Positions 48,672 to 52,733 of a stretch of 64,000 nt of DNA are shown piece after piece. The notes under the pieces are model-generated. The model was given only the letters and a program-made list of their open reading frames with translations. It was not told the origin of the DNA and made no database searches. How positions within the stretch are numbered: the first letter of the stretch is position 1; the number at the start of each line of letters is the position of its first letter. The DNA lies in assembly GCF_003334815.1 (NCBI RefSeq), contig NZ_QOWO01000004.1; one strand, 5' to 3'. Origin of the DNA: Escherichia coli. GTDB lineage: Bacteria > Pseudomonadota > Gammaproteobacteria > Enterobacterales > Enterobacteriaceae. Both the position numbers and the translations under genes were made by a program.

Positions 48672-49465
48672 AACGTACGCATCAGGCGCGGCAGAGGGAC
48701 CGCAACTTCACTTAATGTGCCTGCCTGCAATTGATCTTCAATCACACGTCGCGACAGGCAACTAATTCCCAACCCATGACGCACCGCATGTTTGATTGCC
48801 TCGGAGTTACCTAATTCCATCGCCATCTCAAACTTCGGTAAATGTGACAGCAACAGATAATCGACAATCTCCCGCGTGCCGGAACCGCGTTCACGCAGGA
48901 TCCACGGCGCAGCGGCCAGCTGTTCTAAGGTGACCGGACCACGGGCCAACGGCGAAGTCGGCGCGGCGAAAACCACCAGCTCGTCTTCCAGCCACGGTTC
49001 AGAAATGATTTCAGTGCTGTGGCACGGTCCTTCAATAAAGCCAATATCAACGCGGAAATCCAGCACCGCTTGCATCACGTCCTGGCTATTCCCAACGCTA
49101 AGTTCAATCGGCAACTGCGGATAATCATGGCGATAACGGGCGATAACTGCAGGCAGAATGTAGTTACCGATGGTACTACTGGCATAGATACGAATCGCGC
49201 CGTTGTCTTCGCGAAACAGTTGTTCGATTTCAACCGCCTGTTCAAGCAATGCCAACGCACGCGGATAGAGCAGCCGCCCGTGTTCATTAACAACCAGTCT
49301 TTTCCCCACGCGATCAAACAGTTGCACGCCAAGCTGCCCTTCCAGGTCGGTCAAGGCTGCGCTCACTGCTGATTGCGACAACGCCAGCATCACCGACGCC
49401 TGGGTGGTTGATCCACTTTTCAATACTTCTGCAAAAACTTCCAACTGCCGGAGGGTGATGTGCAT
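48584..49465 (-). CDS. yeiE: LysR-family transcriptional regulator (293 aa)
   Basis: N-terminal LysR helix-turn-helix; divergent from yeiH. Confidence 0.85.
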
Positions 49466-49563
49466 AGTCGCTTACCACTTATAAAGATTAATTATAAATA
49501 TATAATCAATTTTATTTTTAAACCAGTTAGTCGTAACCTTATGCCCGGTTAAAGGAGAGGGTT

Positions 49564-50613
49564 ATGACGAATATCACCTTACAGAAACAACATCGTACAC
49601 TGTGGCATTTTATTCCGGGGTTAGCCCTGAGTGCAGTTATCACCGGGGTCGCCCTGTGGGGTGGTTCCATTCCCGCGGTTGCGGGTGCCGGGTTTAGTGC
49701 CCTCACCCTCGCAATCTTGTTGGGGATGGTTTTAGGCAACACCATCTATCCGCACATCTGGAAAAGCTGTGACGGTGGTGTGCTGTTTGCCAAGCAATAT
49801 TTATTACGTCTGGGTATCATTCTTTATGGCTTCCGTCTGACGTTCTCGCAAATTGCCGATGTCGGTATCAGTGGGATCATCATTGACGTGTTGACGCTGT
49901 CCAGTACCTTCCTGCTGGCTTGCTTCCTGGGGCAGAAAGTGTTTGGTCTGGATAAGCACACCAGCTGGTTGATCGGTGCCGGTAGCAGTATCTGTGGTGC
50001 TGCCGCGGTACTGGCGACTGAGCCGGTAGTGAAAGCGGAAGCCAGTAAAGTAACCGTGGCTGTTGCAACCGTTGTTATCTTCGGGACCGTCGCGATTTTC
50101 CTCTACCCGGCGATATATCCGCTGATGTCTCAATGGTTTAGTCCGGAAACTTTCGGTATCTACATTGGTTCTACTGTGCACGAAGTGGCGCAGGTGGTGG
50201 CGGCAGGTCATGCCATCAGCCCGGATGCGGAAAACGCAGCAGTTATTTCCAAAATGCTGCGCGTGATGATGCTGGCTCCGTTCCTCATCCTGCTGGCGGC
50301 GCGTGTTAAACAGCTGTCTGGGGCGAACAGCGGCGAGAAAAGCAAAATCACTATTCCGTGGTTTGCCATCTTGTTCATCGTAGTTGCCATCTTTAACTCG
50401 TTCCACCTGTTACCGCAGAGCGTGGTGAACATGCTGGTAACGCTGGATACCTTCCTGCTGGCAATGGCGATGGCGGCGCTGGGTCTGACCACTCACGTCA
50501 GCGCGCTGAAAAAAGCTGGGGCGAAACCTCTGCTGATGGCACTGGTACTGTTTGCCTGGCTGATTGTTGGTGGTGGTGCGATTAACTATGTGATTCAAAG
50601 CGTCATCGCATAA
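49564..50613 (+). CDS. yeiH: Inner-membrane protein (349 aa)
   Basis: ORF track; hydrophobic. Confidence 0.8.
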
Positions 50614-50686
50614 ACCACTACATCTTGCTCCTGTTAACCCGCTATCATTACCGTTTTCCTCCAGCGGGTTTAACAGGAGTCCTCGC

Positions 50687-51544
50687 ATGAAATACATTGG
50701 AGCGCACGTTAGTGCTGCTGGCGGTCTGGCAAATGCCGCAATTCGCGCCGCCGAAATCGACGCAACCGCGTTTGCCTTGTTCACCAAAAACCAACGTCAG
50801 TGGCGTGCCGCACCGCTCACGACGCAAACCATCGATGAATTCAAAGCCGCCTGTGAAAAATATCACTACACATCGGCGCAAATTCTTCCCCACGACAGTT
50901 ATCTGATTAACCTCGGACATCCGGTCACTGAAGCTCTGGAAAAATCGCGCGATGCCTTTATAGATGAAATGCAGCGTTGCGAACAGCTGGGGCTTTCTTT
51001 GCTCAACTTCCACCCTGGCAGCCATCTGATGCAGATTTCAGAAGAGGATTGCCTTGCGCGTATTGCCGAATCCATCAACATTGCGCTGGATAAAACTCAA
51101 GGTGTGACAGCGGTGATAGAAAACACCGCCGGTCAGGGCAGTAACTTAGGGTTTAAATTCGAACATCTCGCGGCGATTATCGACGGCGTGGAAGATAAAT
51201 CCCGCGTCGGCGTCTGCATTGATACCTGCCATGCTTTCGCTGCCGGGTATGATTTGCGTACTCCAGCCGAATGCGAGAAAACATTCGCGGATTTTGCCCG
51301 TACTGTCGGCTTTAAGTATCTGCGCGGGATGCACCTTAACGATGCGAAAAGCACCTTTGGCAGCCGCGTTGACCGCCATCATAGCCTCGGTGAAGGCAAT
51401 ATCGGTCATGATGCGTTCCGCTGGATCATGCAGGACGACCGTTTCGACGGCATTCCGCTGATCCTCGAAACCATCAACCCGGATATCTGGGCAGAAGAGA
51501 TCGCCTGGCTGAAAGCGCAACAAACTGAAAAAGCGGTAGCCTGA
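50687..51544 (+). CDS. nfo: Endonuclease IV (285 aa)
   Basis: ORF track; size and synteny. Confidence 0.9.
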
Positions 51545-51546
51545 AG

Positions 51547-52635
51547 ATGAATAACCGGGAAAAGGAGATCCTTGCAATTTTACGGCGTAACCCGCTGATT
51601 CAGCAGAACGAAATTGCGGACATGCTGCAAATCAGCCGTTCGCGCGTTGCGGCGCATATTATGGATTTAATGCGCAAAGGCCGGATTAAAGGCAAAGGTT
51701 ACATTCTCACCGAGCAGGAATACTGCGTAGTGGTGGGGACAATCAATATGGATATTCGCGGGATGGCGGATATCCGTTACCCGCAATCGGCTTCTCATCC
51801 CGGTACAATTCATTGCTCAGCGGGCGGCGTGGGACGCAACATCGCCCACAATCTGGCGCTGTTAGGCCGTGACGTCCATTTGCTTTCAGTGATTGGCGAT
51901 GACTTTTATGGCGAAATGCTCCTGGAAGAAACGCGCCGTGCCGGCGTGAATGTCTCCGGCTGCGTTCGTTTGCATGGTCAAAGCACATCGACGTATCTGG
52001 CAATTGCCAATCGAGACGATCAAACCGTGCTGGCGATTAACGATACCCATCTGCTGGAACAGTTGACACCGCAACTACTGAACGGGTCGCGCGATTTACT
52101 TCGTCATGCGGGCGTGGTACTGGCTGATTGCAACCTGACAGCCGAGGCGCTGGAATGGGTCTTTACCCTCGCTGATGAAATCCCGGTGTTTGTCGATACC
52201 GTTTCAGAATTCAAAGCGGGCAAAATCAAACACTGGCTGGCGCATATTCACACCCTGAAACCCACTTTACCGGAGCTGGAAATTTTATGGGGACAGGCGA
52301 TCACCAGCGATGCTGACCGTAATACCGCAGTGAATGCATTGCATCAGCAAGGTGTTCAGCAACTGTTTGTTTATTTGCCCGATGAGTCAGTTTATTGCAG
52401 CGAAAAGGATGGAGAACAATTTTTGCTGACCGCGCCAGCGCATACGACAGTAGACAGTTTTGGTGCTGACGATGGTTTTATGGCGGGCCTGGTATATAGC
52501 TTTCTTGAAGGATACAGTTTCCGCGACAGCGCCCGTTTTGCGGTAGCCTGCGCGGCAATTTCGCGCGCCAGCGGCAGCTTAAACAACCCTACCCTGTCTG
52601 CCGATAACGCGCTTTCATTAGTGCCAATGGTGTAA
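51547..52635 (+). CDS. yeiI: PfkB-family sugar/nucleoside kinase with N-terminal HTH (362 aa)
   Basis: ORF track; paralogous to psuK plus an N-terminal HTH-like segment. Confidence 0.8.
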   Translation: MNNREKEILAILRRNPLIQQNEIADMLQISRSRVAAHIMDLMRKGRIKGKGYILTEQEYCVVVGTINMDIRGMADIRYPQSASHPGTIHCSAGGVGRNIAHNLALLGRDVHLLSVIGDDFYGEMLLEETRRAGVNVSGCVRLHGQSTSTYLAIANRDDQTVLAINDTHLLEQLTPQLLNGSRDLLRHAGVVLADCNLTAEALEWVFTLADEIPVFVDTVSEFKAGKIKHWLAHIHTLKPTLPELEILWGQAITSDADRNTAVNALHQQGVQQLFVYLPDESVYCSEKDGEQFLLTAPAHTTVDSFGADDGFMAGLVYSFLEGYSFRDSARFAVACAAISRASGSLNNPTLSADNALSLVPMV

Positions 52636-52642
52636 CAATGTT

Positions 52643-52733
52643 GCCGGATGCGACGCTTAACGCGTCTTATCCGGCCTACAAATCAGGCAATTTCAGCAAG
52701 TAAATGTAGGCCTGATAAGCTTGCGCATCAGGC
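52643..52733. repeat. REP pair (BIME)
   Basis: GCCGGATGCGACGCTTAACGCGTCTTATCCGGCCTACAAA and an inverted partial copy. Confidence 0.75.

Follow-up and report, generated by a model that had tools for sequence, protein, structure and literature searches.

A long inverted repeat in the compact junction between yeiH and nfo of Escherichia coli brackets the −10 hexamer and the mapped transcription start of nfo, and its right arm contains the nfo Shine-Dalgarno (SD) sequence. The mRNA made from the nfo promoter begins within the loop, past the left arm, and so holds the right arm only. RNA crossing the junction from yeiH would hold both arms and is predicted to bury the SD. The reading favoured here, to which we give about an even chance, is that the hairpin insulates nfo translation from yeiH read-through by fold-back, in the manner of IS10. 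In this way nfo would probably be kept under its own stress-responsive promoter.

The window is the whole 64-kb stretch of E. coli DNA analysed, and positions are given on it. The junction region is identical to the MG1655 sequence, and the NC_000913.3 coordinate is the window coordinate + 2,200,153. Complete E. coli genomes were searched with 501 nt from across the yeiH-nfo junction (window 50400-50900), and 5426 of the 5426 held one copy at an identity of at least 95%. The end of yeiH and nfo are separated by a very compact junction of ~73 nt, and yeiH-nfo synteny is found across Enterobacterales. The features of the region are as follows.

49564..50613, + strand: yeiH coding sequence, from the ORF list and annotated in 5426/5426 E. 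coli genomes and in MG1655.
50605..50624, + strand: candidate SoxS/MarA/Rob box ATCGCATAAACCACTACATC, which matches AYNGCACNNWNNRYYAAAY with 2 mismatches.
50611-50613, + strand: yeiH stop codon, by direct reading.
50628..50642, + strand: left arm CTCCTGTTAACCCGC, by direct reading, repeat search and folding; it covers promoter positions −25 to −11, in the spacer immediately 5′ of the −10.
50643..50648, + strand: nfo −10 hexamer TATCAT at the 5′ edge of the hairpin loop, a 5/6 match to TATAAT, by direct reading.
50653, + strand: start (G) of the nfo-yeiI mRNA, in the hairpin loop, by SMRT-Cappable-seq (NC_000913.3:2250806).
50664..50679, + strand: right arm GCGGGTTTAACAGGAG, by direct reading, repeat search and folding; it covers +12 to +27 of the nfo mRNA.
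50675-50679, + strand: Shine-Dalgarno AGGAG, part of the right arm, by direct reading.
50687..51544, + strand: nfo (endonuclease IV) coding sequence with its ATG at 50687, from the ORF list and annotation.

The inverted repeat is real, lies at these coordinates and has a stability far above chance. The repeat search found two sub-stems with a one-base bulge between them. Folding of 50628-50679 as RNA (52 nt) gave −23.3 kcal/mol compared with −7.7 ± 2.2 kcal/mol for dinucleotide shuffles (z −7.1), and 0/200 shuffles were as good. In an 87-nt context the stem was still dominant (−25.8 kcal/mol, z −4.5), with 17 pairs joining 50627-50643 to 50663-50680, a bulged U at 50669 and a 19-nt loop. Thus the positions given in the earlier note for the arms, the AGGAG and the nfo ATG all agree with direct reading, and the stem with a one-nucleotide bulge that it described was recovered by both repeat search and folding. 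Its statement that the repeat encloses the nfo ribosome-binding site is wrong: what is enclosed is the −10 hexamer and the mapped start, and the ribosome-binding site is inside the right arm.

An Rfam scan of 49400-51700 at E <= 10 gave no relevant match. A dispersed repeat of the REP/BIME/ERIC kind was considered and ruled out, as a covariance-model search of the 64-kb window and 79 related loci returned only the yeiH-nfo junction. The motif CCTGTTAAC occurs once in the 64-kb window. Within the nfo coding sequence there is a further 9-nt imperfect inverted repeat, GGCAAATGC (50728-50736) and GCGTTTGCC (50768-50776), with 89% match, which is probably due to chance.

The start of nfo transcription was taken from the Supplementary Data of a SMRT-Cappable-seq study (PMC6131387), where the forward start 2250806 of nfo-yeiI has 145 reads in M9 and 123 in rich medium; the position rests on this one TSS dataset and its two growth conditions. 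It transfers exactly to window position 50653, in the sequence context ...cgcTATCATtacc[G]ttttcc.... This is 11 nt 3′ of the left arm and gives nfo a 5′-UTR of 34 nt. In the same dataset the forward transcript from 2250806 to 2252832 (window 50653-52679) covers b2159|b2160, that is nfo-yeiI, as a single primary transcript flagged 'novel' with respect to RegulonDB. The −10 hexamer is kept as TATCAT, TATGAT, TATACT or TATTAT in every Enterobacteriaceae relative examined, and an RpoD-holoenzyme site has been assigned to the yeiH>nfo spacer by genomic SELEX (PMC3946193). The mapped start follows the −10 by about 4-5 nt (discriminator TACC), near the lower limit of usual spacings. The genomic SELEX study (PMC3946193) also gives an RpoD-holoenzyme site for the nfo>yeiI spacer; the nfo stop (51544) and the yeiI ATG (51547) are 2 nt apart, so a promoter there would fall within nfo.

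Mapping of the nfo start had been put forward in the earlier note as a check on the stem, which could form in nfo mRNA only if transcription began upstream of the left arm. A start at 50653 refutes this for the mRNA of nfo itself, and the hairpin is hence not a leader that regulates that mRNA. The claim made for RNA reading through from upstream is unaffected.

nfo is a member of the mar/sox/rob regulon (PMC2989944, PMC3709825). The box consensus AYNGCACNNWNNRYYAAAYN is matched at 50605-50623/4 with two mismatches, and the candidate ends 18 bp 5′ of the −10. Across the window 14 matches to the box were found and 18 are expected, so the candidate match taken alone is at chance frequency; its position and its partial conservation in relatives are the support that carries weight. 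The candidate is consistent with SoxS/MarA/Rob control of nfo and does not prove it. It overlaps the yeiH stop codon (50611-50613) and the last codons, and the putative activator site of nfo would thus lie in the end of the upstream gene. Two papers on genome-wide MarA/SoxS binding do not mention nfo in their main text.

To compare the exposure of the ribosome-binding site in the two kinds of transcript, the SD was followed in RNAs with different 5′ ends. In RNA from the mapped start its predicted probability of being unpaired is 0.49, and 3.1 kcal/mol is needed to open it. In RNA begun 100 or 200 nt upstream, in yeiH, the probability falls to 0.02 and the opening cost rises to 12-13 kcal/mol. 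The view of the earlier note that the SD would be sequestered in RNA entering from upstream (98% paired) is thereby supported by prediction. The same asymmetry is predicted in 34 of 36 Enterobacteriaceae species; over the 36, the median cost of opening the translation start region is 13.0 kcal/mol for read-through RNA and 4.2 kcal/mol for RNA from the gene's own start, the start sites outside E. coli being predicted ones. For 33 outgroup species the values are 8.0 and 2.3 kcal/mol; the excess is larger in the Enterobacteriaceae (Mann-Whitney p = 1.5e-4, kinship ignored).

The only possible source of RNA with both arms is yeiH, whose own start is at genome position 2249699, window 49546 (operon table of PMC6131387). 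That table lists yeiH alone from 2249699 and nfo-yeiI from 2250806, and holds no yeiH-nfo unit. Units were set there by the longest read and only fully covered genes were entered; the longest read initiated at yeiH therefore did not span nfo.

According to the favoured reading, transcription from the nfo promoter, whether basal or activated by SoxS/MarA/Rob, would give mRNA with the right arm only and an open ribosome-binding site. RNA from the yeiH promoter that crosses the junction would carry both arms and would form the 17-bp stem over the nfo ribosome-binding site, leaving nfo untranslated from that RNA. Rho termination or decay would then be the likely fate of the untranslated nfo segment, which would be consistent with finding neither full-length yeiH-nfo reads nor a discrete 3′ end. 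Overall, the output of nfo would be set by its own promoter rather than by the YeiE-controlled transcription of yeiH. The reading supposes that yeiH transcripts reach the right arm, that 30S binding is blocked in vivo, and that the hairpin has been selected for insulation.

A strong hairpin around the −10 is present in 36 Enterobacteriaceae species of more than 20 genera, including Escherichia, Salmonella, Citrobacter, Enterobacter, Kosakonia and Shimwellia. The order of left arm, −10 and start, and right arm adjoining the ATG is kept throughout the family, and the details vary. Shimwellia has a perfect 15-bp stem, in which a U-A pair has become C-G and the bulge is closed. CCCGG/CCGGG is found in Enterobacter ENT03, and CUGUA/UACAG in Pseudescherichia and its relatives. 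The bulge is absent and the loop shorter in Enterobacter, Leclercia and Lelliottia. Entomohabitans has another SD, GGAGAGAU, which pairs with AUCUCU; Salmonella has G.U at a G-C position of E. coli; and in a variant from Cedecea neteri the stem is followed by UUUU (GATAGCGGGTTTTG). In Citrobacter and Kluyvera genomosp. 1 (loci L004, L006, L012 and L014; about 40 nt 5′ of nfo) AGGAG is absent. The stem there reaches further inward and takes in the −10 TATACT (TATACTC/GAGTATG); 3-5 nt separate its end from the ATG.

In the 35 species compared, the arm cores stand 17 to 149 nt apart, at 15 different distances. In Kluyvera intermedia (L086 1301-1505) the loop is longer by about 125 nt; both arms are retained, at a distance of 149 nt. 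In Phytobacter (L011 1392-1504) about 30 extra nt form a hairpin of their own and the arms are kept. Intestinirhabdus (L085 1229-1500) has a 271-nt GC-rich spacer, in which the left arm and the −10 are kept and the right arm is absent.

The bracketing hairpin was also tested in other Enterobacterales with yeiH-nfo synteny. It was not significant in Erwiniaceae, Yersinia, Pectobacterium, Photorhabdus or Edwardsiella, and outside the Enterobacteriaceae it reached significance only in two Serratia. The Erwiniaceae spacers are equally compact and contain no significant structure. In Serratia oryzae (L045 about 1392-1506) yeiH has a canonical terminator, and a hairpin distinct from it, CCTGTGTGTATC/GATAACACAGG, brackets the −10 (TGCCATAAT) and includes the SD in its pairing (duplex z −6.2).

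Pair counts were made on a covariance-model alignment of 35 sequences. Counts based on MAFFT were blurred by the register shift at the one-base bulge, and the covariance model gave a small improvement. RNAalifold on the structure-aware alignment predicted no pairs, probably owing to the long gappy loop. The cells were paired in 82.7% of cases compared with 36-49% in slid registers, the shuffle control giving 81.6%. Double-sided changes were seen in 5 of 17 pairs, a level reached by 16/500 shuffles, and there were 16 extra pair types against 12.9 expected (5/500 shuffles). The covariation is thus real but modest, and the pairing is carried mainly by conservation of the sequence of both arms. 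G.U cells numbered 40 and A.C cells 20, an excess that leans towards RNA of the + strand as the form in which the pairing acts.

The possibility that the hairpin serves the 3′ end of yeiH was considered along with the terminator features of the junction. The earlier note had observed that there is no U-tract and that the repeat is not a typical terminator, and this was borne out: the sequence 3′ of the stem, UCCUCGCAUG, is not U-rich, and a scan of the + strand finds no terminator-like site. The intrinsic-terminator scan found none in E. coli, Citrobacter or Enterobacter Ag1, and the same scan detects the yeiH terminators of Edwardsiella and Serratia. The searched part of the Term-seq supplement of PMC7815308 has no entry for a yeiH/nfo 3′ end, and the SMRT-Cappable-seq TTS table (PMC6131387) has no yeiH TTS; in both cases yeiH is possibly too weakly expressed. 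The supplements of Adams 2021, Ettwiller 2016, Kim 2012 and Middlemiss 2023 have no usable nfo or yeiH entries.

In Serratia, Yersinia nurmii, Edwardsiella and Providencia, yeiH is followed by a canonical hairpin and T-tract, and there is a separate TGCCATAAT promoter. The Edwardsiella terminator consists of the stem GCACCCTGTTAACC-TAT-GGTTAGCAGGGTGT and a T-tract, and has CCTGTTAACC and GGTTAnCAGG in common with the E. coli arms. The motif CCTGTTAAC(C) is common to the Edwardsiella terminator stem, Pectobacterium and the E. coli left arm, and in Pectobacterium CCTGTTAAC directly follows the yeiH stop. The Edwardsiella and Pectobacterium loci with the shared motifs are L059 1408-1448, L071 about 1392-1425, L033 about 1434-1445 and L042 about 1161-1185. 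This comparison of sequences suggests that the hairpin of the Enterobacteriaceae descends from an older hairpin or terminator after yeiH; the old yeiH terminator may be its origin.

These observations lend some weight to the view that the hairpin is a 3′-end element of yeiH (a non-canonical terminator, a pause hairpin or a stem-loop that blocks exonucleases) and that masking of nfo is incidental. In the Enterobacteriaceae, where a canonical terminator is absent, it is the sole strong structure after yeiH. Distant genera carry a canonical terminator at the same place, and the shared motifs suggest descent from one. Some variants, as in Cedecea neteri, are followed by UUUU, and the operon table holds no yeiH-nfo co-transcript. 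However, the E. coli hairpin has a 19-nt loop and no U-tract, the terminator scan was negative in three lineages, and a discrete yeiH 3′ end is missing from the SMRT-Cappable-seq TTS table and from the searched part of the Term-seq data. A 3′-end element also does not account for the way in which the lower stem follows the sequence of the SD, seen in Entomohabitans. We consider this explanation, which is compatible with insulation, unlikely.

Another reading, which seems to us improbable to a similar degree, is that the pairing is a relic of the older post-yeiH hairpin with no selected function now, the arms being kept by other constraints, the left by the nfo promoter and the right by the 5′-UTR and SD. 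Strong sequence conservation of both arms together with weak true covariation would be expected of a relic; Intestinirhabdus has the left arm and −10 without the right arm, the CCTGTTAAC motif predates the family, and the Erwiniaceae do without the hairpin. On the other side, promoter spacers and 5′-UTRs are normally less conserved than these arms. Changes that restore or improve pairing have arisen independently in Shimwellia, ENT03, Pseudescherichia and Entomohabitans, as has the loss of the bulge in Enterobacter, Leclercia and Lelliottia. Loop insertions of 30 to 125 nt have left the arms complementary, and the excess opening cost in read-through RNA exceeds that of the outgroups.

Action at the DNA level, by a dimeric regulator whose operator clamps the nfo −10 or by a supercoiling-sensitive cruciform, is very unlikely. 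The arms do flank the −10 and the start symmetrically, and a bound protein or a cruciform would occlude the promoter. But the range and number of the arm spacings are incompatible with a fixed dimer geometry or helical phasing, and the dimeric regulator site that the earlier note had offered as an alternative is disfavoured on this ground. The 2 to 1 ratio of G.U to A.C cells suits RNA rather than duplex DNA. A 19-nt loop and a bulge disfavour cruciform extrusion. A full-text search for literature naming yeiH, nfo and yeiE together gave only a genomic-SELEX survey and no description of a regulator site at the junction.

Least credible of all is a leader in nfo's own mRNA acting as an SD switch (a thermosensor, or an sRNA or protein target): the stem would by prediction give an effective translational off-state, but a second start 5′ of 50628 would be needed, whereas the single nfo start is at 50653 in both conditions, with one transcript context per condition for b2159, the distance from the candidate SoxS box to the −10 suggests that induced transcripts begin at 50653 too, and Rfam gives no match.

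Fold-back insulation has points against it as well. The left arm could be kept for promoter reasons alone, as the absence of the right arm in Intestinirhabdus indicates. The Erwiniaceae are equally compact without the hairpin, and the presence of both a terminator and a bracketing hairpin in Serratia oryzae makes insulation seem redundant there. A more specific form of the insulation reading, offered tentatively and rated as somewhat short of an even chance, is that in the Enterobacteriaceae a 'promoter-in-the-loop' insulator arose from the hairpin of an old yeiH terminator. Its loop would have taken in the −10 and the start, and its 3′ arm would have been recruited for the Shine-Dalgarno, so that translation from read-through RNA is silenced and the SoxS-driven mRNA is fully open.

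A textbook DNA-repair gene under SoxS/MarA/Rob regulation, nfo follows at 73 nt a membrane-protein gene that is unrelated to it, is regulated separately and lacks a terminator. Insulation by the hairpin would explain how two differently regulated genes can be packed so tightly. In that case, nfo reporter fusions that include upstream yeiH sequence could differ from promoter-only fusions, and operon prediction from short intergenic distance would wrongly merge yeiH and nfo.

Four known systems can be set beside the junction. Class II SoxS/MarA/Rob promoters reportedly have a box that overlaps the −35 region, about 18-19 bp from the −10. nfo resembles them in belonging to the regulon and in having a candidate 20-bp box 18 bp 5′ of its −10. 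It differs in that the description of this family comprises an activator site and a core promoter, with no inverted repeat by which the spacer pairs with the 5′-UTR. Rho-independent terminators are similar in being GC-containing hairpins directly after a stop codon, and the nfo hairpin occupies the place where Serratia, Edwardsiella and Providencia have a canonical terminator; its arm sequences resemble the terminator stem of Edwardsiella. Unlike them, it has a 19-nt loop (as against about 3-8 nt), a bulge, no U-tract and a promoter in the loop.

In SD-sequestering hairpins of 5′-UTRs, such as the IS200 tnpA leader (PMC4513863), RNA thermometers and the expression platforms of riboswitches, the SD is likewise placed in a stem that must open for 30S binding. 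In those hairpins, however, both arms are in the mRNA of the regulated gene itself, whereas the nfo mRNA, starting at 50653, is without the 5′ arm.

The closest parallel is offered by insertion sequences. IS10/Tn10 is reportedly protected from external promoters by fold-back of read-through RNA (Davis, Simons & Kleckner 1985, Cell 43:379, as cited in PMC2965389 and PMC13181058). The IS10 promoter pIN starts inside the fold-back structure, and the transposase gene of IS50/Tn5 is likewise protected from external promoters. Sequestration of the translation signals of transposase in secondary structure has been described in IS10 and IS3 (PMC2965389, PMC13181058). As in IS10 and IS50, the 5′ arm at the nfo junction (50628-50642) is upstream of the gene's own start (50653) and the 3′ arm (50664-50679) is over the ribosome-binding site; that site is accessible in the gene's own transcript and buried in the external one, for nfo by prediction. 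Unlike these elements, nfo is a chromosomal stress and DNA-repair gene and not a transposase, and the hairpin is single-copy and syntenic rather than the end of a mobile element. For nfo the source of upstream RNA would be fixed and conserved, namely the neighbouring yeiH, whereas an insertion sequence meets random contexts, and the nfo promoter in the loop is activator-dependent. If nfo is insulated in this way, a mechanism so far documented for insertion sequences would reach an ordinary chromosomal gene. If the 'promoter-in-the-loop' reading is true, the fold-back inhibition of IS10 would have a counterpart on the chromosome, and the arrangement might serve more generally where tandem genes are closely packed and independently regulated. 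On this comparison, the nfo hairpin is best described as an analogue of the IS10 fold-back in mechanism, and not as a member of an IS family.
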